Positions 9,575 through 43,326 of a DNA stretch of 64,000 nt are shown piece by piece. Position numbers and translations under genes: made by a program. Within the stretch, counting starts at the first letter, position 1. Each line of letters starts with the position of its first letter. The notes beneath the pieces were generated by a model, which had not been told where the DNA came from, searched no databases, and was given only the letters and a program-made list of their open reading frames with translations. Origin of the DNA: Candidatus Doudnabacteria bacterium (GTDB lineage Bacteria; Patescibacteriota; Doudnabacteria; UBA920); contig JAHFJJ010000003.1 in assembly GCA_023245895.1 (NCBI GenBank), forward strand, positions 11,343-75,342. Reading direction: 5' to 3'.

Positions 9575-9650
9575 GGGCGTGTAGCTCAGTTGGTAGAGCG
9601 GTCGTCTTATACACGACTGGTCGGGGGTCCGAGTCCCTCCACGCCCACCA
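9575..9650 (+). tRNA. tRNA-Ile (anticodon UAU), encoded CCA; atypical T-loop (C at position 55)
   Basis: Manual cloverleaf: acceptor gggcgtg/cacgccc, D-arm gctcagttggtagagc, anticodon stem gtcgt/acgac, loop cTTATac, T-arm ggggg-tccgagt-ccctc, CCA. Confidence 0.7.
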
Positions 9651-9866: not shown

Positions 9867-12347
9867 TTATATTATAGTAGCGCTGGCGACCTTATCTCCT
9901 TCATCCAACCTCATCACCCTTACGCCCTGAGTGGCTCTGCCTAATGTAGACACATTATTTAGCGGTGTGCGGATGGTTTGGCCCATTTTGGAGATTATTA
10001 CAAGGTCGTGTTCTTCGGCGTTGTTTAGGATGTACATGGCTACAATTTTGCCGGTCTTGGGGGTAACTTTTAGGGTTTTGATGCCGGAGCCGCCGCGGTT
10101 TTGGATTTTGTAGTATTGGCCTTCCGTTTTTTTGCCCAGGCCGTTTTCGGTTACCACCAAAACTTCCAGGGATTTTACATCAACTTCTTTTCTTATAATG
10201 TCCATGGAAATAATGTGGTCGTCTTTTTTAATGCGCATGCCGGTAACGCCGCTGGCGTTGCGGCCCATTGGGCGCACGTCTTTTTCGTTAAAGCGAATAG
10301 CCTGGCCGTTTTCCGTGGAAAGCATTATTTGGTCTTCTCCGGAAGAAGTTTCTACCCATTTCAATTCATCATCCCCTTTGAGGTTAATGGCAATCATACC
10401 GCTCTTGCGCACTTTGGCAAATTCTTCCCGCGCGACTTTTTTAATAAGGCCATTTTTGGTGGACATGACCAGGAATTTTCCGCCGGAGGCGGATCCGCCT
10501 CTGGCGGAGGCCATGGTTAAAATTGCTTGCGCGGTTTCATTGTTCTGGAGCTGTAGGAAGTTTACCAAGGCCTGGCCTTTGGCTGTCCTTGAGCCTTCGG
10601 GCAGTTCGTAAACTTTAGTCTGGAAGACGCGGCCTTTGTTGGTAAAGAAAAGAATGTCGTCGTGAGTGTGTGAAGATATAAGTTTGTCCACTACGTCTTC
10701 TTCTTTTAACGATTGGCCAATTATTCCTTTGCCGCCGCGGGCCTGGGCTTTGTAGGTATCGGGCGCCAGGCGTTTTACATAGCCGCTCTTGGTTACTGTA
10801 ATTATTACATTGCTTTCAGGGATTAAGTCTTCGGCGCTAAAGGAACCTATGGCGTTCTTGATTACCACAGTCCTGCGCTCGTCGCCGAATCTTTCTTTAA
10901 GGTCCAGCACCTCTTTTTTAATAATAGATAAAATCTTTTTAGCGGACTGCAAAATGCCTTCTAATTCTTCTATCAATGCTTTTTTTTCTTTCAGTTCATC
11001 GTCAATTTTTTTGCGTTCAAGGCCGGCCAAAGTCTGCAGGCGCATTTCCAAAATGGCGTCTGTCTGGATGTCGGTCAGCTTGAACTTCTTCATTAAGTTG
11101 ACCTTGGCTTCTTCCTTGGTCGGTGATTTGCGGATAATACTGATGACTTCATCAATATGGTCCAAGGCTTTCTTTAAGCCTTCCAAAATATGCGCGCGTT
11201 CTTTGGCTTTTTTAAGCTCAAAGGCTGTCCTTCTTTTTACCACAACCTGGCGGTGCTCCAGGAATTTTTCCAAAACCGTTTTTAGGTTTAAAACATGGGG
11301 CTCAATGCCCCCTACCAAGGCCAGCATGTTCAAATGGAAAGTTTCCTGCATTTGGGTGTAGGAAAAAAGCTGGTTTAAAATTTTGTTGGCCAGGCCGTCT
11401 TTTTTTATATCTACGACAATCCGCACGCCGTCTTTATCGCTTTCATCGCGCACGTCCTTAATGCCTTCTATTTTTTTCTCGCTGACCAGCAGGGCGATTT
11501 TTTCCAGCAGGGTGGCTTTGTTAACGCGGTAAGGAATTTCGTGGACTAAAATTTGGAAGGCCCCGCTCTTGGTCTCCACAATTTCAGTTTTTGCGCGCAT
11601 AACAATCCCGCCCTTGCCGGTAGCATAGGCGTTCTTTATGGCCGCGACATCGTAAATAATTCCGCCGGTGGGAAAGTCCGGTCCTTTAACAAATTCCATT
11701 AGGTCTTCGGTGGTGGCTTCGGGGTCATCAACCAGTTTTACAATCGCGTCGCAAATTTCCGTAAGGTTGTGCGGCGGAATATCTGTTGCCATGCCCACGG
11801 CAATGCCAAGTGTGCCGTTTAAAAGCAAATTAGGCACTTTGCCCGGAAAGACAATAGGTTCTTTGCGCGTGGCATCGTAGTTGTCGCGCCAGTCTACGGT
11901 TTCTTTGTCTAAATCTGTCAAAAGTTCTTCGGCTAAGGCGGACATCCTTGCTTCGGTGTACCTCATGGCCGCGGCGCCGTCGCCGTCCATAGAACCAAAG
12001 TTTCCCTGGCCGTCTATTAACGGGTAGCGCATGGCGAATTCCTGGGCCATGTGCACCATGGCGTCGTAAACCGAAGCGTCGCCATGCGGGTGGTATTTAC
12101 CCAAGACATCACCGACTACAGCCGCGGATTTGCGGAATTTAACGCTATGGCGCAGCCCCAGTTCGTGCATAACGTAAAGGATGCGGCGGTGCACGGGCTT
12201 AAGGCCGTCGCGTACATCGGGAAGGGCGCGGGAAACAATTACGCTCATGGCGTAATCCAAATACGACTCCTGCATTTCTGTTTGGATGTCGCGCTGTTTT
12301 ATTTCTCCTATGTCGGTTGATAGTTCTGCTTTGGAATCTTTGGGCAT
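9867..12347 (-). CDS. gyrA: DNA gyrase subunit A
   Basis: 826 aa. [27 protein letters not shown]-terminal signature, C-terminal beta-pinwheel repeats. Confidence 0.9.
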
Positions 12348-15721: not shown

Positions 15722-15958
15722 TTAAATTGAAGTAGGGGCGGCAACAGGATTGCAGTTGCGGCAGAGTTTTTTGTGGACTGCAATTTCGTAAATCGCGGAC
15801 AGGCCGACAAGCACGTAGATTACCATGGTAACAGGGTTGGAAACAGGGCCGAAGATTTTTTCAACAAGGTTGAAATTAAACGCGGTAAGTCCCCAGTTAA
15901 GCCCGCCAACAATCAATAGGATAAAAGCAATGGTGTGTAAAACTTTCATTCTTTTCAC
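15722..15958 (-). CDS. DUF378 family membrane protein
   Basis: 78 aa, two TM helices, GGLNWGL motif characteristic of DUF378. Confidence 0.55.
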   Translation of the reverse strand: MKRMKVLHTIAFILLIVGGLNWGLTAFNFNLVEKIFGPVSNPVTMVIYVLVGLSAIYEIAVHKKLCRNCNPVAAPTSI

Positions 15959-16079
15959 CCCCTTTCAAGGGTAGTTGATTGGTTAATTTAGACGTCCTAA
16001 TTATAACAACCGCCTTAGTTTTTAACTAATTGGTTATCAACAATTAAAAATCCTCCGTATGAGCGGAGGATTTTTATAT

Positions 16080-33067: not shown

Positions 33068-33502
33068 TTACTCTTCTTCATGTATTTCCCTAATCAGCTC
33101 ATCTATATGCTGTACATACCTTGGCGAGACGTCTAAATGGAAAGAAATGCGCGGAATTATTTTGGTGTGGAAGTGTTTGTTAACTTCGCCTTGGATGTCG
33201 TAAATATTTTTGGCCAAAAAGTCCATAATTTTTTTGTCCAAAGATGGGTTAGCCAGAGGTTTTTTATCAACCGAGGATTTAACCCCCTCTCCCTCTGGGA
33301 GAGGGCCGGGGTGAGGGTTTACAGCATGGAAAATAGAAATCCAAATTTTCGCCCACTTCATGTCTTTGGACGTTTCCACTTTAGTAATAGTTACCAGCGC
33401 GTCAAAGTCCTCTAAAAATTCCAGTAAAACCGGCCCCAGTTCATGCTGGATAAGCGAGTTAACTTTGGCTATGCGGTTGGTGTCTTTTTTAACTTGTTTC
33501 AT
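33068..33502 (-). CDS. rbfA: Ribosome-binding factor A, carrying an in-frame repeat-derived insertion
   Basis: KQVKKDTNRIAKVNSLIQHELGPVLL matches the RbfA N-terminal KH-like region. Residues PHPGPLPEGEGV are encoded by the family A repeat at 33284-33318. The preferred start is the ATG at 33500-33502. The longer ORF to 33541 reads into the repeat. Confidence 0.6.
   Translation of the reverse strand: MKQVKKDTNRIAKVNSLIQHELGPVLLEFLEDFDALVTITKVETSKDMKWAKIWISIFHAVNPHPGPLPEGEGVKSSVDKKPLANPSLDKKIMDFLAKNIYDIQGEVNKHFHTKIIPRISFHLDVSPRYVQHIDELIREIHEEE
33284..33318. repeat. Family A GC-rich palindromic repeat inside rbfA
   Basis: ccccctctccctctgggagagggccggggtgagggt. Confidence 0.7.
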
Positions 33503-33590
33503 TTGGTTTCCCTCTCCCTCCTTGTCCGCCATAGTCCGCATGAGGCGGACGACGGCGGATGGGAGAGGGATTAAGGGTGAGGGTTAAGAG
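33494..33590. repeat. Composite palindromic element (family A-like arms ccctctccctcc / gggagaggg around nested gtccgcc...ggcggac hairpins), immediately upstream of rbfA and at the left edge of the GC-rich island
   Basis: Read directly. Arms complementary. Confidence 0.6.
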
Positions 33591-33725
33591 GTTAGATAAT
33601 CTAATTATAACAATTAAGTATAATAAATTTTTTAAATTTTAACAAGACTGTACATATAAAAAATAAAGAAGGAGCCTGAAAATTCCAGGCTCCCTTCTGT
33701 GGTTCTTGAGAATTATTTGTCCGGA

Positions 33726-35132
33726 CTACAGCTTGGCCAGACGGTCGAGCAGGGGCTTGGCGTCCTTTCCAAAAACCTCTCTTATCCGAGCCTCGAATTG
33801 AGGCCTGAATGTGCTGCCGCTGGTGCGGGCGAGGTTTGACCGGAGGCTTGCGGCAAGATGCTTATTGTAGGCGCCGAAATCATCTTTGAGCATCTTGTCC
33901 CACACATTTTTAGGGAATTTGCCCCCGTTCTCTTTCTTAGTTTCTAAAGCCTTGATTTTCCATTCGATCTGTTCACGTTTGGAAAGGGCGTCCCAACTTT
34001 GTTTGGGTTTAGAGTTCCGTCCGCCTCGTCGGGGGGCTCGCGTTGGCTCGTGTGGTGTTGTAGGGGCCTGCGGGGAGGCAGGTGCCTCCACCACCATAAT
34101 TTTACCCCGCCGCATCAATATATCGGCGATTTCTTGGAGCGTTGTCCCGTCGCCGGTTGAGTTTTGTGCAGCCGCGAGCAGGGCTTCGAATTCCTCCAGC
34201 GCTTCTCCTCCAACCGCTGTAGCAATAGTCTGGAGCTTGTCGAACTTTAACGTGGTCATGGTCTGGCGTACCTCAGGAATTGGATGTGTGAAGACCGAGA
34301 TTACTTCGTCTTCCTTCACCCACCACAGGTTGCTGTTTACCCACTGCTCCAGCAGTGAGCGGATGTTTGCTTGCGTGAATTCTCGACCGTCGCATGCGAA
34401 GTGGAAAAGGTAAGTTCGCATCCGGGCAGGCCGTCTGGCGTTCATGAAGCGCGATACATAAACGTATCGCTCAATTCTGTCGGGAAACAAAATGTTACCG
34501 CCTTGCTGGATCATTGCTTGCAGCAATAGGACAAACAAACCAAATTCCCTTTTGGCTCCCTTGATGGGATCGAAGTGCTGCTTAAAAAATGTTGGCAAGT
34601 GGTCGGTTTTCGCTTTGGGCAGGGATTTTTGCTGGGCAATGAGCTTCTGGAAAAAAACTTCAGCCTCATCTGCGTTCAGCATTTCTTCCAAGGCCAGCTT
34701 AATTTTTCCGTGTTGCTTAATGGACTTGTTTTCCCGCGCGTCGTGTACGGTTATAGCAAGACAGCGTGCGCTGTTTTTGGCCGAAATCAGTTGCAAGGTG
34801 TTTTGGATTTCCGTAATCCTTGTTTCCGCCGTGCCGCAAAAATCCAAGTGGAAAGCATCTACGTAGGCATCTTTGCCGTGGACCTGTCTTAACCTGGACG
34901 GGAATTGCTCAAGGTTGGGGCAAAACCGGTATTGAAACCTACGGATTAAGTCATTGCCAAGGTCGTTGTCCCATTCAATAAGAAAACCCTGCTTTTCCGG
35001 AACGTTGTGCCTAAGCCAAATTTCGGCTTCAAAGCCTTTGCCGCCCAAGGTGGCCAGCTTAGCCTCAACGAGAGGCTTGAAACCGGCAATCATCTGCAAG
35101 AACATTTCAATAATTCTCTCTTTTGGTTGCAT
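33726..35132 (-). CDS. Island protein 1: large hypothetical protein (468 aa) with Pro/Arg/Lys-rich low-complexity C-terminal segment
   Basis: Long ORF with GC-rich codon usage unlike the flanking genes. No domain recognised by eye. Confidence 0.5.
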   Translation of the reverse strand: MQPKERIIEMFLQMIAGFKPLVEAKLATLGGKGFEAEIWLRHNVPEKQGFLIEWDNDLGNDLIRRFQYRFCPNLEQFPSRLRQVHGKDAYVDAFHLDFCGTAETRITEIQNTLQLISAKNSARCLAITVHDARENKSIKQHGKIKLALEEMLNADEAEVFFQKLIAQQKSLPKAKTDHLPTFFKQHFDPIKGAKREFGLFVLLLQAMIQQGGNILFPDRIERYVYVSRFMNARRPARMRTYLFHFACDGREFTQANIRSLLEQWVNSNLWWVKEDEVISVFTHPIPEVRQTMTTLKFDKLQTIATAVGGEALEEFEALLAAAQNSTGDGTTLQEIADILMRRGKIMVVEAPASPQAPTTPHEPTRAPRRGGRNSKPKQSWDALSKREQIEWKIKALETKKENGGKFPKNVWDKMLKDDFGAYNKHLAASLRSNLARTSGSTFRPQFEARIREVFGKDAKPLLDRLAKL

Positions 35133-35469
35133 GAACCCCCCTGAAAATTGTTAAAAATGCTAAACCATACTGACCAATAAGATTAATAAAAACAGCCCGA
35201 AATGTCAAGGCAAAAGTCTTTGACATAATTGCCTGTTTATGATACATTTTAAAGTCCCTTTTCTAGGGTAACGTACATAAAGGGTCTGTTGCCAAATGTC
35301 ATTTTTGCCCAAAACGAGCTTCTTTGGTAAAATTTCCTAAAAAATTTATCTGCTTACCTTCCAGGTAAACATCAAAATTTGTTTAGAAAATTTTCCTCAA
35401 ACAATCTCATTTTGTTTCAAAAAGCCCATTCGGCAACAGACCCTTAAAAATCTTTTGGAGGATAGATAA

Positions 35470-37029
35470 ATGACTGATAAAAAGTCCGAACTTAAACCGG
35501 TTGCGGTTGTCAGCGCCATGCGCACGGACAGGGATGTGGCTTTGACGCTTGAAAAAGTCATTGCCACCTTGAGCTCCCTGCAGAGTGAATTTGCCTCGGG
35601 AGGTATTGCCCAGGAGTTTTTGGCCTTAACCTTGTTGGTCCTCCAGTGCGTACGCTCCGGAAGAACAGACAAGCAGGCGGAAGACGCGGCAGACAGTCTT
35701 GGTCTATTTTTAATTGACCTAGCGGCTTGCCTTACCACCACCCCCTTTGAGAATCCACATGTCGAAGGAGTTACAGCCTTAGGCAAAGAACTTCTCCAAC
35801 TCCGGACAGACCTTAAAGAGTTGGCCGTTTCAAAAGCCCAAGTCGCAAACGAATTGCAAAGCAGGAACGCGGCGTTTGATTCTCTTTCACAACTTGCCGG
35901 CCAGCAGACTGGGAAGATTCACGAGTTAGAAGCAAGGCTGGCCAGCGCCACGGAAACTAACTTTGACCGGTTAAACCGGTTGGAGCCCACGCTTGCGGGA
36001 ATAGCCAGGGGCCTTGGAGAGAAGCTGGAGTCTGCCAAACACCGCGAAAGCTTGTTGCGGCAGCTCTCTCAAGTTCACGAGGAGCAGGCCGTCCAAGTTA
36101 GCAGGGATGTTGAACGGGTTGCCGAATTGGTTGTTTCCATTCAACAGGTGGTTGCCAATGTTAAGGCTCAAGTTAATCCAGTTGAGGTCGTCCAATATGC
36201 ACCTCAAGAGCCACCCGCGGCGGAGTCAGATCTTGATGTTGCCAAAGAAATTGGTCGTAGACAGGAATGGCTGCTTCAAGTTGGCGAGAGGATTGAGGAA
36301 ACTTCGTCGGCTTGTTCCGATATTGGCCATGAGTTGAGCCGTGTAAGCAGCGAGCTGGGGTTGGCCAAAGGCCCTGCCCGCGCTCCACTAGTCATTCAGC
36401 AAACCAAGCTCACTCAACAAAAAGGCCAACTCGAGGCTTTGCAACAGAAGCTGTTGGACTCAGAAAAAGGGGTCCAAGAGCAAATCAGAAAACTGCGTGC
36501 TTATAAGGCCGCGCAGGAACTGGTTGCTTCAGGCTTGGACCAGCAGGCAATGCTTGCCGGTTTACCGGAAATTCCTGATACGACGGAAGCAGAACCCGAA
36601 CAGCAGCAAGAGGCTGGTCATGATGCCGATTTGAATAAAATCCAGGCGCTTGCCGGCCTGGCGGCTGCTCACGGAGTGTCCACCAAGGCACTCTTTATGA
36701 TTACCTTGTACGAATGCCTGCCGCAAAGGCCAACCGGCGGCGTTCTAAGAAAGAGCAGTTTACGGATTGCCAGGGTAGCAAGGGATTGCGGACTGCTTTC
36801 GGAGTTTGGGTTTGGAAGAGAGATCCGCCAGATTGTCTACTTAAAGCAAGATGAGGCCTTTCCCAAGGCCTTTATGCACTATGGCGGGACCCCCGGCGGT
36901 ATAGCAATTTACAGCCGGACGGCCAATCCGCTTAGCTGGAAAGTCACGGATGTGTTTTCTGGTGAGGAGGTAAGTAGATTTCTGGCGCAGTATGTCCAGA
37001 ATGAACAAAAGGCGGAGGAGCGTTCTTAA
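35470..37029 (+). CDS. Island protein 2: hypothetical coiled-coil-rich protein (519 aa)
   Basis: Long heptad-like Q/E/L-rich central region and globular C-terminus. Divergent from island protein 1. Confidence 0.5.
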   Translation: MTDKKSELKPVAVVSAMRTDRDVALTLEKVIATLSSLQSEFASGGIAQEFLALTLLVLQCVRSGRTDKQAEDAADSLGLFLIDLAACLTTTPFENPHVEGVTALGKELLQLRTDLKELAVSKAQVANELQSRNAAFDSLSQLAGQQTGKIHELEARLASATETNFDRLNRLEPTLAGIARGLGEKLESAKHRESLLRQLSQVHEEQAVQVSRDVERVAELVVSIQQVVANVKAQVNPVEVVQYAPQEPPAAESDLDVAKEIGRRQEWLLQVGERIEETSSACSDIGHELSRVSSELGLAKGPARAPLVIQQTKLTQQKGQLEALQQKLLDSEKGVQEQIRKLRAYKAAQELVASGLDQQAMLAGLPEIPDTTEAEPEQQQEAGHDADLNKIQALAGLAAAHGVSTKALFMITLYECLPQRPTGGVLRKSSLRIARVARDCGLLSEFGFGREIRQIVYLKQDEAFPKAFMHYGGTPGGIAIYSRTANPLSWKVTDVFSGEEVSRFLAQYVQNEQKAEERS

Positions 37030-37043
37030 AAGCATAAAAAAAA

Positions 37044-37076
37044 TGGCGTGGAATTCAGATGAATTCCACGCCTCTT
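37044..37076. terminator. Bidirectional hairpin terminator between convergent island genes
   Basis: ggcgtggaattcagatgaattccacgcc flanked by A-run and T-run. Confidence 0.6.
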
Positions 37077-37083
37077 TTGTTGC

Positions 37084-38589
37084 CTATTTTTTCTTTTGCT
37101 TGAGAAGCAACTCCCGTTGTAGGGTCGCCCGAAACTCCCTGGCTCCTTCGGCATCTGAGGGGGATTGGCCAATTGCTACTGCCTCCAGGATGCACGTAGT
37201 CAGGTGTTCCCGCTGGACAGGCTTGCTTTTTGGCCAGAGCTCGTATCCATCTATATTAAGGTGGATGATTTCCCGGTTGCCAATGGCCAGACTGGCCAGT
37301 ACCGTGGGTCCTAACGGCCGTTTAATAAGGAGGTAGGTTGCCTCCCCGATTTTTACCGGAATGGACCGGGGTTTGGGATCTTTTTTTTCTGTCTTTACCC
37401 CGCCGCCGCCTCCACTTCCGCCGCCTCCACCCGGCTTTTTTTTGCCCGGTAAATCAATGGTTGGTCCGTCGCCGTGAAGGGTGGGGATTCCCCAAGTGTT
37501 GCCGAACATTTCCACCAGTTCCATAACTTGCGAGCCGAGTGAGTTCCTTTCAAAGACATCCTGACCTTCAAAGAGGGCTTGAGCCGGCGGCGAGATGTGC
37601 GTCCCGAGGTAAGCGTAGTCCTTTCGCCACGCTGCGCTCTTGAGAAATTTGTCACTCAAAGAGTCGCGGGCTGAGTTTTGGTGGGTTAGAACCGAACGGA
37701 CGAATATATCTCCGGTCAGTCCATGGCTGAAGAGGGGGTAAGGCAGCGCAGACCCAAGGTGAGGGCAATACGCAACCCGCAGACCAGTCTCGGCGTCGGC
37801 AATCCAGAGACCGCCGTCACCGTCTTCGGTTCTTTCTATGCAGGCTTGGATAGCCAGGTCGCTTCCCGGAAGGATCCTGTCGGCCAAAGGCGGAGGATCA
37901 AGCTGTTCTCCCCCAATTAAGAGTCTGAACATTTTGTCTTTGATCCTGGGGATCCGCCACTTCAAAGCTTCGCGGATTTCAACGTAGCTTGTGAATACCG
38001 GATCCGGGACGACAATGGCTGTAAATGAGCCTTTGATGCCTTTTTGAGGCCCCAGTTCCACTCCGGCCTCGTCCACCTCCCGAACTTCCGGTGGTGTACC
38101 CAGTTCAATGTCCGGAATGGATATCATTCTGACCTGGCCTTTTACGGTCGTCCGGGTTAGTATGTAAAATCCGGACCTGCCATCGTCGTTGGTTTCTCTC
38201 AAGGCAAAAGTAGCCAGCCTGCCAATCCGTTTTTGGGCCGCGCCGTGGTGCAGGGCAGACCGTCCTGACCTTCTTTCTTCCCTGGGCGTGCCCAAGAATA
38301 GGTAGCGGTCCACTCTTGGGTCAGTAAGGCCCACGCCATGGTCTAAAATCACAAGGGCCCGTCCACTGGCAGACAGGGGGTGATTTTTGACCAGGAAAAT
38401 TTCCACGAAAGCTTTTTCCGGTTCCCAATTTTCCTCGTTCATGCAGGCGCAAGCTCCGTTCCTTACAACTTCCCACAAACAGGCGCCTTTGTCCTTATAG
38501 AGCTCTCCTGCCAGGGTTTCGGTAAACAAGGTAGGGTCTATTTTCCACCCTTGGGCCCATGCGGTAGATTTTGCAGCAGCTGATTTCAT
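37084..38589 (-). CDS. Island protein 3: putative GHKL/Bergerat-fold (HATPase_c-like) ATPase with Gly-rich linker and uncharacterised C-terminal domain
   Basis: N-box-like EVVRNGACA, G1-box-like VILDHGVGLTD, a weaker G2 region, and a linker KKKPGGGGGSGGGGG. ATG overlaps the stop of the upstream gene (ATGA). Confidence 0.45.
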   Translation of the reverse strand: MKSAAAKSTAWAQGWKIDPTLFTETLAGELYKDKGACLWEVVRNGACACMNEENWEPEKAFVEIFLVKNHPLSASGRALVILDHGVGLTDPRVDRYLFLGTPREERRSGRSALHHGAAQKRIGRLATFALRETNDDGRSGFYILTRTTVKGQVRMISIPDIELGTPPEVREVDEAGVELGPQKGIKGSFTAIVVPDPVFTSYVEIREALKWRIPRIKDKMFRLLIGGEQLDPPPLADRILPGSDLAIQACIERTEDGDGGLWIADAETGLRVAYCPHLGSALPYPLFSHGLTGDIFVRSVLTHQNSARDSLSDKFLKSAAWRKDYAYLGTHISPPAQALFEGQDVFERNSLGSQVMELVEMFGNTWGIPTLHGDGPTIDLPGKKKPGGGGGSGGGGGVKTEKKDPKPRSIPVKIGEATYLLIKRPLGPTVLASLAIGNREIIHLNIDGYELWPKSKPVQREHLTTCILEAVAIGQSPSDAEGAREFRATLQRELLLKQKKK

Positions 38590-39443
38590 TTTTTCCTCTT
38601 TGAAGAACCGCTTGTCGCGGATATGCCGGCCAGTAGCCGCATATCCCTAGCAGACAGCGGTTGTCCGGTTTGCAGTTGTTGTAAAGTTTCAGCGTCTATC
38701 CCGCAACATCGAAACAGGCGCTGTACATTGGTGATAATGCGTGTCTTGTGGGCGTCGTTTAAACTGCCCGGCTTGAGCGCGAGTTCGATAAAATTTATGG
38801 CCGCGGTAAGCATAGTAAGCAGGTTATTGACCAGTTGGTCAGGCCTGCAGTCCACACTTACGACTTGGTCGCCAGGCGCTGGCTTGCCTCTGGCTTTGAG
38901 TTTTGCGCCTTTCTTCTTTCTTTTGTGCCAGTCCTCTTCCTGCTCAAGCAGGAAGGGAAGCTCATCCCATTTGCCGGCCTGTTCCGCAACGACCACATTA
39001 AATATTCCGGCTGCGGCTTCCACGTTCACGGTACCGCCTTTTTGAATGCAGTGTCTTAATACTTTTCGGCTTTGGATGCCGGCTTTCCTGCAGGTCTTAG
39101 CCAAGCCGTGTTTTTTAACTACTTGCGCGGCGGCTTTTGCAAGGTCGGCCATGGAACCAATTTCCGGGTGTTGGCTTTGGAAAGTTCTTGTAACGGCGGC
39201 AAACACCAATCCGGGTATGCTCATCTTGGTTACGGTTTCCAACCGGTTGATGTTTATACCTAACGGTACTTCCGGCGGATTGGAAGCCAGTATTCCCTCA
39301 ATAAGGGAATCGGGAATTTTGCCCGCCCTGAGTTTTTTCCAGTCAGGGTCATTCTCTTCTATCCATGCAGAAAGCGCCGAGGCCAGTAATGCCCTAAAGA
39401 CGATTACTACTGTCGGTAATTCTGTTGTTGCTTCTCGTTTCAT
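38586..39443 (-). CDS. Island protein 4: hypothetical protein (285 aa), translationally coupled to the GHKL-like ATPase gene
   Basis: 4-bp ATGA overlap with the downstream gene. Lys-rich central linker. Confidence 0.5.
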   Translation of the reverse strand: MKREATTELPTVVIVFRALLASALSAWIEENDPDWKKLRAGKIPDSLIEGILASNPPEVPLGININRLETVTKMSIPGLVFAAVTRTFQSQHPEIGSMADLAKAAAQVVKKHGLAKTCRKAGIQSRKVLRHCIQKGGTVNVEAAAGIFNVVVAEQAGKWDELPFLLEQEEDWHKRKKKGAKLKARGKPAPGDQVVSVDCRPDQLVNNLLTMLTAAINFIELALKPGSLNDAHKTRIITNVQRLFRCCGIDAETLQQLQTGQPLSARDMRLLAGISATSGSSKRKK

Positions 39444-39561
39444 TAAACCTCCTTAATTCACGAAAAATCGTATTCAAAAGTGCGCCGTAAATTTTTTACG
39501 GGACTAATTACAGTAACCTAATTTGCCAACTTAGTCAAGATAAAGAGCTTTTTGGTTTGGC

Positions 39562-39590
39562 TTGACAAAAAGCTAAAAAATAGCTATAAT
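39562..39590 (+). promoter_or_regulatory. Consensus sigma-70-type promoter (TTGACA-17 nt-TATAAT) oriented toward island protein 5
   Basis: Perfect -35 and -10 hexamers with a 17-nt spacer, seen directly. Confidence 0.6.
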
Positions 39591-39728
39591 TTTTGGTTAA
39601 AATAGAGTTTCTTCTTTTGGGTTAACCTTTATGAAGCCAAAAGGAGAAGCGCTGTTTTTTGAAGGTTTGAAAGATAGCGTGAGCACACCAATCCGGAAAC
39701 GGACTACATTTGACAGGAGGACACTAAC

Positions 39729-41294
39729 TTGACTACCACAGCTACAGCACCAGCTCGAAAGCCGATTGTTTTTAAGAAGTCGCTTGTGTTCAGGGAAATT
39801 GCCTTGCACCCTTGGGTGCACTTTGACGAGGCCGCCGGGGTATATTTAATCCGCAACTACGGTTCGGCTTTGTTTAGGGGTATAGCCCAGGCCGGCTTTG
39901 TTTTTTGGAAAACCGGCGACACGCCGGACGGCCGTCCGGGCGACGCCTGGCTATACGATGGCGTGGTTCCCGTAGGAACCGGCCACGGGATATTTGACGA
40001 ACATACCGAGGACGGGCGGAAGAAAGATGCTTGCGCGGCCACGCTTGTGGCTGAGTACCTCGAAATTTCTTCCATGCCTGAACTGGCAGAGCTCCTGGCT
40101 TACACGCTGGGCGCGGATAGCAAGGCTAGAGCCAACCCGTTTTCCCTGCCCACCGTCCTCAAAGACATGAATTTGTTTTTGGAGGAAGATCCCGTTTCAA
40201 TCTTATCGTGGGTCATGGAAGCGGTTACGGCTCACGTTAACCGCCGCCGGTTTGAACTCGGGCGCCAAACTTCCGCCAGGCCGTCGCTGGAAAACCCGCT
40301 TACGTTTGACTTGGTGCTGGCAGATTTTTTGTGCCAGTATCACGTCCAGTACGGGGCTCAGGCGAATTCCGTGCTGGCTCCGGCCATTCGCGAGTTTTTC
40401 GCGCTGGCTCCGGCCGGAACAAATCCGGTGGAGTGGCTTAAGACCAACTATCCCGCGTTGCAAGAGTACAAAGCCAAACAAGCTTGTGTACTCATGGCCC
40501 AGGCTTTTGGCCTTTTGGACCATCCTCACTTCCGCTACATAATACAGTACGTGGTCAATCCTTCCCTCTGCCAAAAGGGCAAACTTCCTTTTGCCGCCTC
40601 ATTTGAGTTGCCTACCTTAATTGTTGACATATTCAGCGACAACGGCGGGCAGTTGGAGCAGGCCTTGGACTGGGCTTCAGTAGCAATTGCCGCTAAGCTC
40701 TACTCTTCCAAGAGGTTTGTAGAAGCCAAGGCCGAGTACGCAGCCGGGGCAAAGTTAGAAGTACTAAAAACGTCACAAGGGGAAGTCAGCCTGGTCAGCC
40801 TGGTCAGCGACAACCCAAAGGCAATGGCGGTGTCCCATTCCGCCGCCGCCGCCAGGGCCCAACGCAACGCTGATATTTTTGTCCTGCGAAAGCCTTCCGG
40901 GCATGTTGGGGTGTTTGCGGATCCCCTGCTCGACATCCGTGATGTAGTAAAGCTGCTGCGGATGCTGGAAATACAGAAGCGTGGTCTTGAAATGCCACCT
41001 TGGGACAAGCTGGTGAAAGGGGGCGACGGGCCTGATGGAGCGTTCTTTTACTTTCCGGACGCGAACCATTTGTACAACAGTTCGCTGTCCACTCCTGACG
41101 TTCCCAGGACGCTCCTGTCTTTGGACCGGGTCCTCCACACCATTCGGTTCGCCTTGGACCAAAAAGCCTTCCCGCCCGATTTTTCCGCGGGTTGCTTGAA
41201 AGGAGTGTGTGGCTCAACAGACAACGATCCCTGCCCGATTTTCGCGGCAGGCCTGGAGCGTTGCCACCAAATCCGCGCGCGGTCCAAAAAGTAG
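39729..41294 (+). CDS. Island protein 5: hypothetical protein (521 aa), TTG start with strong RBS
   Basis: aggagga 8 nt upstream of TTG at 39729. No in-frame ATG nearby. GC-rich. Confidence 0.5.
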   Translation: MTTTATAPARKPIVFKKSLVFREIALHPWVHFDEAAGVYLIRNYGSALFRGIAQAGFVFWKTGDTPDGRPGDAWLYDGVVPVGTGHGIFDEHTEDGRKKDACAATLVAEYLEISSMPELAELLAYTLGADSKARANPFSLPTVLKDMNLFLEEDPVSILSWVMEAVTAHVNRRRFELGRQTSARPSLENPLTFDLVLADFLCQYHVQYGAQANSVLAPAIREFFALAPAGTNPVEWLKTNYPALQEYKAKQACVLMAQAFGLLDHPHFRYIIQYVVNPSLCQKGKLPFAASFELPTLIVDIFSDNGGQLEQALDWASVAIAAKLYSSKRFVEAKAEYAAGAKLEVLKTSQGEVSLVSLVSDNPKAMAVSHSAAAARAQRNADIFVLRKPSGHVGVFADPLLDIRDVVKLLRMLEIQKRGLEMPPWDKLVKGGDGPDGAFFYFPDANHLYNSSLSTPDVPRTLLSLDRVLHTIRFALDQKAFPPDFSAGCLKGVCGSTDNDPCPIFAAGLERCHQIRARSKK

Positions 41295-41316
41295 GACAAG
41301 TTTCGTTTACCACTTA

Positions 41317-41366
41317 GGCAGTAGGTTTTGCGTCGGCAACGCAAAACCTACTGCCTCTTTTTTTTG
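41317..41366 (+). terminator. Rho-independent terminator closing the island (17-bp stem + T9)
   Basis: ggcagtaggttttgcgtcggcaacgcaaaacctactgcc + tcttttttttt. Confidence 0.7.
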
Positions 41367-41397
41367 TAAAATAAAAAACCTCCCAGTTAGGGAGGTT

Positions 41398-43326
41398 TTA
41401 AGTGTTCAAAGTTTTTTGTTTTATTTTCTCCTCAAAGCTTTCCAGCACGTCTCCCGCTAAAACTTTTACGTTGGTTTTAAGTTTTATACCGAATTCTTCG
41501 CCTTTGCCCGCGGTTCTTGCGGCGACTTTGCTTTGCTGGAGTTCGGTTATTTCCGCGCGGCCCATTTCCACGCCTTCCCTTAGCACCATAATGTGGCTGA
41601 CTTTTTTAAGTTCGCCTTCTTCCACTTTGCCGCCGACTATCATTAAACCTTTTTCCGTGCGGAAAATTGCCAGGACTTTGGCTTTGCCAAAGGTGTGCTT
41701 TTCCAATTCCGGCGTGAACATTTTAATTACGGCAGAAGTTAAATCTTCAATCAGTTCATAAATAACTTCGTAAGAATCTATTACCACTTTTTTTTGTTTG
41801 GCCAGGTTAATGGCTTTGGAATTTATTTTGGTATGGAAGCCAATTATAGTAGCGCGGGAACTTGCGGCCAAAAGAACATCGCTCTCGTTAATTTCGCCTA
41901 CGCCTTCGTTAAGGATGGAAATTTTAACTTCATCGTTCTTTAATTTGGCAACGGATTGCTTAATGGCTTCCAAAGAGCCGGCCACGTCGGTTTTTATTAT
42001 CAGGTTCAGTGTTTTATTCTTTAAGTCGCCCACAATGGCCTGCTTGCCGGCAATTTTGTGGCTCTGGTTTTTGCGCTGGACGGTAATGGCAATTTGTTTG
42101 GCGGAGTCTAAATCTGCCGTGGTCTGCAGAATGTCGCCGGCTTGCGGGACTTCGCTAAAACCGGAAATTTGCGCCGGGGTGGAAGGCACGGCCTCTTTTA
42201 ATTTTTTACCCGTTTCATCCTCTAAGCTCCTAATTCTGCCAAAAGCCGCGCCGGCCGCAATAATATCGCCGACTTTAAGCGTGCCGTTTTGTACAATTAC
42301 GGTTGCGGTTGCCCCTTTACCCTGGGAAATTTTACTTTCAATAATGGTGCCAATGGTTTTGCCAGCCGGATTGGCGCGGAAGTTTTCTACTTCAGCCGTG
42401 AGTAGAATCATTTCCAGCAAATTGTCTATGCCCATGTTTTGTTTGGCGGAAATTTCTACGGCAATGGTTTTGCCGCCCCACTCCTCGGTTAACACGCCCT
42501 GTCCGGCCAGTTCCTGTTTGACTTTTATTACGTTGGCCTCGGGTTTGTCTATCTTATTTATAGCCACAATCATGGGCGTGTTGGTAAACTTGGCGCGATT
42601 TATAACTTCCAAAGTCTGCGGTCTTATCCCGTCATCGGCCGCAACAACAAGGATAATAAGGTCGGTTACGTTGGCGCCGCGGGCCCGCATTTCACTAAAG
42701 GCTTCGTGGCCCGGAGTGTCCAAAAAGGTAATTAACTTTCCATTTTTTTTAATCTGATAAGCACCAATGTGCTGGGTAATGCCGCCGCTTTCACCTTCGG
42801 CGACTTTGGCTTTCCTAATGGTATCGAGCAAAGTGGTTTTTCCGTGGTCAACGTGCCCCATAATGGCAACAATGGGCGGACGATATTTTAAATTTTCTTC
42901 TTTTTCGGCTTTTAAAACTTCCTGCAAAAAACCAATGCCGTATTCCGCCACTGCTGTATCAACTTCAGTCTCAACTTCAAAACCTAACTCTTGCGCCACA
43001 ATAGAAGCAGTATCAAAGTCCACCTCTTCGTTAATGCTGGCCATTACGCCGTTGTTAATTAAAACGGTTATGACTTTGGTTACGGGCAGTTTTAACAAAA
43101 CGGCAAAGTCCCTAACCTTAATGAAAGAAGGCAGTTTAACTTTTTTTATCTCCTTCGGCCCCGTTGCCTGCTTGACCGGCTGGCCGTAGGCTTCCAAAAG
43201 TTTCCGTGCCACGTAGTTGTCTACCTTGTTGGCCTTAGGCGAAATAAAATAACCCTTCTCCTTGGCTTTCAGGCGAAGGTCTTGGATGGACATATTTAAT
43301 TGTGACGACAAACTAGATAGATTCAT
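41398..43326 (-). CDS. infB: Translation initiation factor IF-2
   Basis: G-domain motifs (GHVDHGKTTLLD, DTPGH, NKID). 642 aa. Confidence 0.9.
   Translation of the reverse strand: MNLSSLSSQLNMSIQDLRLKAKEKGYFISPKANKVDNYVARKLLEAYGQPVKQATGPKEIKKVKLPSFIKVRDFAVLLKLPVTKVITVLINNGVMASINEEVDFDTASIVAQELGFEVETEVDTAVAEYGIGFLQEVLKAEKEENLKYRPPIVAIMGHVDHGKTTLLDTIRKAKVAEGESGGITQHIGAYQIKKNGKLITFLDTPGHEAFSEMRARGANVTDLIILVVAADDGIRPQTLEVINRAKFTNTPMIVAINKIDKPEANVIKVKQELAGQGVLTEEWGGKTIAVEISAKQNMGIDNLLEMILLTAEVENFRANPAGKTIGTIIESKISQGKGATATVIVQNGTLKVGDIIAAGAAFGRIRSLEDETGKKLKEAVPSTPAQISGFSEVPQAGDILQTTADLDSAKQIAITVQRKNQSHKIAGKQAIVGDLKNKTLNLIIKTDVAGSLEAIKQSVAKLKNDEVKISILNEGVGEINESDVLLAASSRATIIGFHTKINSKAINLAKQKKVVIDSYEVIYELIEDLTSAVIKMFTPELEKHTFGKAKVLAIFRTEKGLMIVGGKVEEGELKKVSHIMVLREGVEMGRAEITELQQSKVAARTAGKGEEFGIKLKTNVKVLAGDVLESFEEKIKQKTLNT

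Follow-up and report, generated by a model that had tools for sequence, protein, structure and literature searches.

A recurring four-gene cassette with a predicted GHKL ATPase and a methyltransferase-fold protein at the infB|rbfA junction of a Candidatus Doudnabacteria genome

The junction between infB and rbfA in a genome of the Candidatus Doudnabacteria type (candidate phyla radiation, CPR, also called Patescibacteria) holds an inserted segment of ~7.7 kb that carries five long open reading frames (ORFs), here named P1 to P5. The segment lies within the window, that is, the whole stretch of 64,000 nucleotides that was analysed (GenBank assembly GCA_023245895.1, contig JAHFJJ010000003.1, forward-strand positions 11,343 to 75,342), and all coordinates below are counted from its first letter unless another locus is named. 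The insert is composite: it consists of a self-contained cassette, P4-P3/P2/P1, and of an unrelated gene, P5. According to structure prediction, P3 is a highly divergent ATPase with a GHKL domain and an S5-type transducer and P1 is a cryptic S-adenosylmethionine (SAM)-dependent methyltransferase. We are highly confident of the insertion, the four-plus-one composition and the two folds taken together; for the cassette, a role in methylation-linked nucleic-acid conflict or defence is plausible.

The insert and the recurring cassette

ORF calling places P1 (468 aa) at 33726-35132(-), P2 (519 aa) at 35470-37029(+), P3 (501 aa) at 37084-38589(-), P4 (285 aa, the first gene of a P4-P3 operon) at 38586-39443(-) and P5 (521 aa, with a TTG start preceded by AGGAGG) at 39729-41294(+), exactly where an initial annotation of this DNA had put five ORFs of these lengths. 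The genes are spread over both strands and make up four or more transcription units. On its two sides the insert has rbfA (Pfam RBFA, 7.7e-16) and infB, which encodes translation initiation factor IF-2 (TIGR00487, 6.5e-189), and a gene for an NrnA-like DHH protein is the third neighbour. Relatives were found with the IF-2 of the window by scanning one genome per GTDB species, which yielded ~50 loci of the same lineage, labelled Candidatus Doudnabacteria or Patescibacteria and with IF-2 identities of 57-88%; rbfA, nrnA and P1-P5 were then mapped onto these loci, 45 of which contain both infB and rbfA. The two genes are normally adjacent, as the initial annotation had assumed: in 35 of the 45 loci the gap between them is at most ~380 bp, usually 100-270 bp, and the gene order in the relatives runs from rbfA to nrnA. 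P1-P5 were found at infB in none of the ~50 relatives, either by mapping or by a profile search of all loci; the presence of these genes at the site in relatives, which the initial annotation had named as counter-evidence, was thus not observed.

The edges of the insert follow from a nucleotide comparison (blastn) with six relatives in which the site is empty. Homology to these genomes continues through infB and its terminator up to 41372 and picks up again in the promoter of rbfA (33604-33646) and at its start codon (ATG, 33502), breakpoints that delimit the inserted DNA to ~33650-41372, with edges approximate to a few tens of bp. At the empty sites, too, infB ends in its own terminator and rbfA starts from its own promoter, so that the insertion parts two neighbours and breaks no transcript. 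The initial annotation was thus right to see an insertion between genes that are contiguous in relatives, but the split of an infB-rbfA operon that it described did not occur, as a terminator and a promoter lie between the two. The infB|rbfA junction is an accessory-cargo hotspot specific to this Doudnabacteria subclade: other inserts, ranging from 0.7 kb to more than 8 kb, occupy it in 12 of the 18 nearest relatives, those whose IF-2 shares 80% identity or more, and their cargo includes CopG-type antitoxins (loci L008 and L012), a PIN toxin (L014), TrmB-like regulators, a pyridoxal phosphate (PLP) enzyme and several ORFs without a Pfam match. No integrase or transposase accompanies the insert of the window in Pfam and NCBIfam scans, and a tRNA scan found no tRNA at the junction. 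The dagK-infB spacer upstream is also variable in length among related genomes.

The cassette is recognised by its recurrence. Its genomic contexts were collected from P3 homologs in genome assemblies and in a metagenome scan (15 loci) and by iterative hidden Markov model searches (jackhmmer). The arrangement P4>P3> <P2 P1> is kept in order and orientation at practically all loci whose flanking sequence is long enough (~15 CPR loci besides this one), and each unit is equipped with a ribosome-binding site, promoter-like sites and a terminator of its own; in one lineage the genes are rearranged to <P1 P4>P3>P2>. P4 always stands directly upstream of P3 at the other loci (jackhmmer), and a P2 homolog is present in all cassettes with enough flank. 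The flanks themselves differ at every locus (pheST/UvrD/ATP synthase, smpB/argS, RNase J/trpS, ribosomal protein L25/purA and, in another Doudnabacteria genome, a run of small orphan ORFs), the position varies even within Doudnabacteria (L108), and no gene family recurs around the cassettes, UvrD and translation genes included. The hosts are sporadic, being Doudnabacteria, Uhrbacteria and other CPR genomes, and stand-alone P1 homologs are named Zambryskibacteria and Parcubacteria. The P3 family comprises 25 clusters, 35-50% identical and 499-524 aa long, whose named members are Doudnabacteria and Uhrbacteria. Both families are rare, with these 25 clusters for P3 and 15 for P1 (lower bounds in both cases) among 5.8 billion proteins in a k-mer-indexed search, as are cassette loci, of which there are 15 among 241 million metagenome records. 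Two candidates were rejected: an apparent second cassette downstream of infB in L094, where the supposed infB matches no more than the GTPase domain of a protein like TypA/BipA, and an apparent P4-P3 fusion in L092, an 814-aa frame in 65%-GC DNA that has no P4 match and is not used as evidence.

P5 is an unrelated passenger that stands outside the cassette system and belongs to a large uncharacterised family. A k-mer search returned only P5 itself, and the protein could have passed for an orphan; an exhaustive HMMER search (phmmer) gave 1,017 relatives, and orphan calls and family sizes from the k-mer-indexed search are lower bounds. Counted as cluster representatives, the family has no fewer than 1,017 members, of which 611 reach E values of 1e-10 or below, with identities of up to 39%. 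Most of these relatives have a length of ~350 aa and align with P5 over two separate stretches, residues 20-175 and 300-520, so that P5 contains an insert of ~125 aa. Conserved residues are H27, H31, D33, E34, D90, H92, D130, N450, C489, C494, C502 and C512, which give the family a metal-site-like signature, T-H-x-x-P-H-L-D-E ... G-V-G-G-G-x-F-D-E-H, with four C-terminal cysteines. P5 has no Pfam or PDB match. In an hhalign comparison of the P5 family with one Pfam-verified sequence of MYG1/UPF0160 (a DHH-like hydrolase) both His/Asp motifs align, at a non-significant probability of 1.7% and E of 0.03, which makes the resemblance no more than a lead, and the ChrB_C matches seen in 8 of 36 family members (best E 4.7e-4) are weak and uninformative. 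The nearest full-length relative, from another Doudnabacteria genome, stands alone between dTDP-rhamnose genes and clpB, and the shorter members also stand alone in housekeeping neighbourhoods. DUF8128 and TrwB_AAD_bind (type IV coupling-protein-like) genes lie one or two genes away from two unrelated P5-family loci (L103 9236-12171 and L105 3795-6335); the association could be functional, or these could merely be common CPR genes.

The base composition of the island is raised to a moderate degree. It has a GC content of 0.513, compared with 0.436 in the remainder of the window, and the values at the three codon positions are 0.59/0.42/0.57 for the island genes against 0.50/0.36/0.48, each ~1.4-1.7 standard deviations (SD) above the 45 other long ORFs of the window (GC3 ~1.4 SD); the bias is real but moderate, and amino-acid composition carries part of it. 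The cassette is also richer in GC than its flanks at 11 of 12 loci, in hosts whose GC content ranges from 38 to 65%.

The cassette proteins

None of the five proteins has an above-threshold match in Pfam, NCBIfam, PADLOC or PHROGs, in agreement with the initial annotation, which had recognised no family among them. In P3, a GHKL (Bergerat-fold) ATPase domain is followed by an S5-like transducer, and a disordered, Gly-rich stretch (373-402) links these to a C-terminal domain (~403-501) that is conserved. The Bergerat alpha/beta sandwich is present in the predicted structure, and the structure-comparison figures are highest for MORC3 (18.4), MORC2 (18.3) and SMCHD1 (16.5) and lower for TRAP1/Hsp90 (16.4), Topo VI-B (14.8) and MutL (13.9), with alignments of ~274-295 residues that correspond to the Bergerat ATPase domain plus the S5-type transducer. 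Across 25 sequences of the family the invariant residues are E40 and N44 (motif I), D83-x-G85-x-G87 (motif II), G116...K120..G123-R124 (lid) and T145 (motif IV). A profile of the family matches only the N-domains of Hsp90/TRAP1 in the PDB, with motifs I-III in register and an E value of ~0.05, and the Pfam model HATPase_c_3 gives 12.2 bits for the P3 of the window against a cut-off of 25, with sub-threshold matches in 8 of the 25 members (best E 0.019). The Bergerat-fold GHKL ATPase that the initial annotation had proposed at 37084-38589 is thus borne out by invariant motifs, fold and the Hsp90/TRAP1 register; as modelled, P3 is a highly divergent GHKL+S5 ATPase, and its motifs predict that it is active. 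When P3 alone was used as query, a sequence search of the PDB returned only noise from the Gly-rich linker against single-chain variable fragment (scFv) antibodies. Assignment of P3 to MORC sensu stricto was also rejected: by regular expression, the S5 signature GhXhhpXXRhl is absent from 23 of the 25 sequences, and the two matches fall at a non-conserved position. In the C-terminal domain (window 37084-37380), the family keeps only E461-H462, Y449 and N445 and has no HExxH motif; this domain may be a degenerate or repurposed metalloprotease-like domain.

In P1, residues ~1-285 are predicted to adopt the fold of a class I SAM-dependent methyltransferase, and a basic, disordered linker (324-373) leads on to a helical domain at the C-terminus. 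The invariant positions are a Gly-rich loop after beta1 (T28-L-G-G-x-G-x-E35), an acidic residue after beta2 (E53) and a catalytic loop after beta4 (D97-x-C-G100-T101), and a large helical insertion separates beta5 from beta6. No Pfam methyltransferase, DNA-methyltransferase, TRM or RNA-methyltransferase model matches any of 15 family members. Foldseek ranks small-molecule methyltransferases first, and the structural neighbours act on substrates of several kinds (tRNA, rRNA, DNA and small molecules), so that the fold points to no single target of P1. Seen through its model, P1 is a cryptic SAM-methyltransferase with a complete class I core.

The two remaining partners are less readily classified. 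P2 begins with a helical region, continues as a long coiled coil and ends in a globular domain (~400-519) that is conserved, and it gives only coiled-coil noise against Pfam, PADLOC and the PDB. P4 is poorly conserved (~20% identity), although a helical region in its C-terminal part ('DGDR...') is conserved and the tail is basic; the family has helix-turn-helix (HTH)-like segments with scattered sub-threshold HTH matches only, and there is no match to PDB sequences. P4 is probably an HTH DNA-binding adaptor. The stop codon of P4 overlaps the start codon of P3 as ATGA, with an AGAGGA ribosome-binding site ahead, which confirms the translational coupling noted in the initial annotation.

Proposed function and rival explanations

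MORC and paraMORC ATPases of the GHKL+S5 type sit in restriction-modification (R-M)-like operons with DNA methylases and are proposed to be ATP-driven engines that clamp or loop DNA (Iyer, Abhiman and Aravind 2008, PMC2292703), and experiments have demonstrated phage defence by a Shedu variant that contains a GHKL domain (PMC12137116). Given this operon logic and the Shedu precedent, we tentatively favour, with somewhat less than even confidence, a paraMORC-like system of nucleic-acid conflict or defence that is linked to methylation. The hotspot at the insertion site, the constant cassette at varying positions, the ATGA coupling and the rarity of the families count in its favour as well. In such a system, P1 would mark the nucleic acid of the cell itself, probably DNA; P4, held at a fixed ratio to P3 through translational coupling, would bring P3 to DNA; P3 would dimerise upon ATP binding, as other GHKL+S5 engines do, and clamp or loop the DNA; P2 would serve as a coiled-coil scaffold or bridge; and incoming unmarked DNA would be excluded or inactivated. 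Pfam, NCBIfam, PADLOC and PDB profile searches find no nuclease domain in the cassette proteins, so that the effector would be either non-nucleolytic or hidden in the conserved C-terminal domains of P1-P3. The effector step may thus consist of clamping or compaction, as in BREX-like exclusion and in eukaryotic MORC/SMCHD1 silencing, or else it may reside in the conserved C-terminal domain of P3, in P2 or in P1. A more specific form of the proposal, which we consider doubtful, holds that P1-P4 constitute a nuclease-free, CPR-restricted immunity in which the methyltransferase marks self and an HTH-loaded, coiled-coil-bridged MORC-type clamp entraps or compacts unmarked invading DNA and thereby silences it; such an immunity would correspond in function, among prokaryotes, to the silencing exerted by MORC/SMCHD1 in eukaryotes.

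Comparison with known systems shows both the likeness and its limits. As in MORC and paraMORC1-5, P3 combines a predicted GHKL ATPase bearing all nucleotide-binding motifs with an S5-type transducer and a family-specific C-terminal extension; as in paraMORC operons, its neighbour has a predicted methyltransferase fold, the distribution is sporadic and island-like, and the predicted role in clamping or looping DNA is the same. In contrast to MORC/paraMORC operons, the cassette has no superfamily II (SF-II) helicase and no nuclease partner of the restriction-fold, HNH or HKD type (~15 loci), P1 is no recognisable Dam/Dcm-type DNA methyltransferase, and the partners are coiled-coil and HTH-like proteins. 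Sequence identity between P3 and eukaryotic MORC2, MORC3 and SMCHD1 is 10-12%; in these proteins the coiled coil and chromatin-reader domains are fused to the ATPase, whereas the coiled coil of the cassette is a separate protein (P2) and the cassette has no CW, hinge or chromo-like domains. For its activity against phage, GHKL Shedu (VcSduA/paraMORC3) needs a GHKL ATPase whose motifs I-IV are intact; in VcSduA one polypeptide makes up the whole system and carries at its C-terminus a DUF4263 nuclease of the PD-(D/E)xK type, a domain that P3 does not have. BREX/Pgl systems are likewise multi-gene combinations of methyltransferase and ATPase with no classical restriction endonuclease, but the cassette has no homologs of PglZ, BrxC, BrxL or PglX and its ATPase is of the GHKL type instead of the P-loop type; in comparison with R-M systems, a cognate endonuclease is not detectable. 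Trm1, the tRNA N2,N2-dimethylguanosine methyltransferase, is similar to P1 in fold only: the 15 members have no TRM (PF02005) match, and P1 differs in its beta5-beta6 helical insertion, its unrelated C-terminal domain and its GHKL ATPase context. No described system with this composition was found in the literature. What is new here is a divergent family predicted to be GHKL+S5 ATPases, with new partners and neither helicase nor nuclease, which is confined to the CPR as far as seen.

Several observations weigh against a conflict or defence role. Against the PADLOC-DB v2 models, P1, P3 and P5 have no match even at E values up to 1, and P2 and P4 produce only noise-level, coiled-coil matches to LmuB and PDC-M72A (E 0.004-0.008); as the initial annotation had concluded, no named system can be assigned. 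No nuclease, helicase, integrase or transposase is found in or beside the cassette at any of the ~15 loci, no flanking direct repeats, target-site duplications or att-like sites were found at the insert, and the neighbours of the cassette elsewhere are mostly housekeeping genes, with no recognisable defence islands. The GC excess found in 11 of 12 hosts means that the raised GC largely tracks the host and is no proof of recent transfer; it points to an intrinsic compositional property of the cassette, and the reading of raised GC as a foreign sign in the initial annotation therefore stands as to the excess itself and is unsupported as to its meaning, there being no clean foreign signature. The apparent rarity of the P3 and P1 families is to be read in the light of P5, all 1,017 relatives of which were missed by the same k-mer search. 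Finally, neither family was found in IMG/VR viral contigs, a neutral result.

Four other explanations have to be weighed. The cassette might be a DNA-maintenance module, that is, an accessory MutL/MORC-like machine for repair, recombination or nucleoid organisation in which the GHKL clamp and the coiled-coil and HTH partners would work on DNA and P1 would add a methyl group that marks a strand or locus, as Dam does for MutHLS. We consider this unlikely: the distribution is sporadic and the chromosomal positions are unrelated even within Doudnabacteria, ~50 close relatives have no cassette near infB, there is no MutS-like partner, the UvrD neighbour does not recur, and the copy in the window occupies a hotspot that holds toxin-antitoxin modules in sister genomes. 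The position between infB and rbfA would be meaningful if P1 were a Trm1-like tRNA or rRNA methyltransferase and if P3, as a chaperone ATPase like Hsp90, worked on ribosomes or other ribonucleoproteins. Such an RNA or translation module is improbable, as small, translation-rich CPR genomes give neighbours of this sort by chance, no translation gene recurs beside the cassette and the supposed infB of L094 is only a TypA GTPase domain; besides, P1 has no TRM or RNA-methyltransferase match and Foldseek puts small-molecule enzymes first, P4 resembles an HTH DNA-binder, and P3 is structurally closer to MORC than to Hsp90.

The same components could also form a selfish addiction module of little benefit against phage, in which loss of the P1-dependent mark would expose the cell to its own P2, P3 and P4 in the manner of R-M post-segregational killing. 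The architecture follows the logic of R-M systems, themselves addiction modules in their behaviour, the cassette is patchily distributed, and the hotspot is shared with the toxin-antitoxin genes of relatives, but no toxic effector is identifiable, and neither mobility genes nor carriage on plasmids or viruses turned up; this explanation is inseparable from the favoured conflict or defence system by sequence alone, and we rate its chances as slight. That all five ORFs make up a single, horizontally acquired defence system, the view taken in the initial annotation, is very improbable. The five genes are contiguous, share a raised GC content and are bounded by host terminator and promoter signals, yet P1-P4 recur in ~15 loci, every one of which lacks P5; P5 is divergent from P4 and has its own consensus promoter and terminator, and its homologs stand alone in housekeeping contexts, another Doudnabacteria genome included.

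Other features of the window and wider significance

The genes of the insert are separated by clear transcription signals. P2, whose ribosome-binding site is GGAGG, converges with P3 on a bidirectional terminator at 37045-37072, which has a 12-bp stem and T-runs on both strands. P5 is preceded, ~140 nt ahead of its start, by a sigma-70-type promoter, TTGACA-17-TATAAT, at 39562-39590(+) that matches the consensus at 12 of 12 positions, and is followed by an intrinsic terminator at 41316-41356(+) with an 18-bp perfect stem and a T-run. The strong hairpin that the initial annotation had described as a terminator closing the island (41317-41366) is this one; it belongs to P5, and infB has a separate terminator of its own at 41375-41399(-), back to back with it. 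The P1 terminator, at 33669-33695(-), lies directly ahead of the native rbfA promoter region (33604-33646(-)), which is host sequence at the edge of the insert and matches the empty-site relative L011. The leader of P5 contains a 33-codon upstream ORF, 39632-39732(+), whose TGA stop overlaps the TTG start of P5 (TTGA); it has no clear ribosome-binding site and may have arisen by chance. Rfam and tRNA scans found nothing inside the island. Elsewhere in the window, a tRNA-Ile with the anticodon TAT lies at 9575-9650(+); AUA is usually read by a lysidine-modified CAT anticodon, and TAT is uncommon.

Two hairpins stand out. The spacer between the divergent genes P1 and P2 is 337 bp long in the window against ~75-150 bp at other loci, and within it, in the 5' leader of P2, lies a long, imperfect hairpin element of ~166 nt at 35280-35445(+) with a predicted RNA fold of -62 kcal/mol (z -6.96) and no Rfam match. 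Homologous copies occur in two other Doudnabacteria genomes (L012 13557-13718 and L022 ~15906-16070); column identity among the copies is 79%, and the terminal stem differs in a compensatory way, with GGGTC/GACCC in the window and GGGCC/GGCCC in L012. The element is not part of the cassette in other hosts, and it could be a lineage-specific miniature inverted-repeat transposable element (MITE)-like element or an undescribed structured RNA; its presence suggests either that the cassette has been resident long enough to gain a lineage-specific element or that the hairpin is regulatory. The second hairpin, at 33507-33590(-) in the 5' leader of rbfA, has a predicted energy of -45.6 kcal/mol (z -6.75), far better than shuffled controls, and pairs CCCUCUCCC with the Shine-Dalgarno sequence GGAGGGAGAGGG just ahead of the ATG at 33502. 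It corresponds to the palindrome (33494-33590) with which the initial annotation had the island begin: the element is real, but it sits within the leader of rbfA, on the downstream side of the conserved promoter, and marks neither the start of the island nor an att site. Other hairpins occupy this place in the relative L049, and the leaders of further relatives are short; in the window, the hairpin may regulate translation of the cold-shock factor RbfA.

The CPR accounts for a large share of bacterial diversity and its members have tiny genomes; to our knowledge, very few defence systems have been recognised among them. As no sequence library matches the cassette, standard defence annotation would miss it, and the predicted enzyme identities of P3 and P1 are visible only through structure prediction, which places the eukaryotic chromatin silencers MORC2, MORC3 and SMCHD1 as the nearest solved relatives of P3. 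The infB|rbfA hotspot is, moreover, useful for finding more accessory systems in Doudnabacteria. If the proposed function were true, the paraMORC/R-M theme would reach to a helicase-free and nuclease-free architecture, the cassette would offer a compact bacterial model for MORC-type clamps with separate coiled-coil and DNA-binding partners, and the sparse catalogue of CPR immunity would gain an addition.

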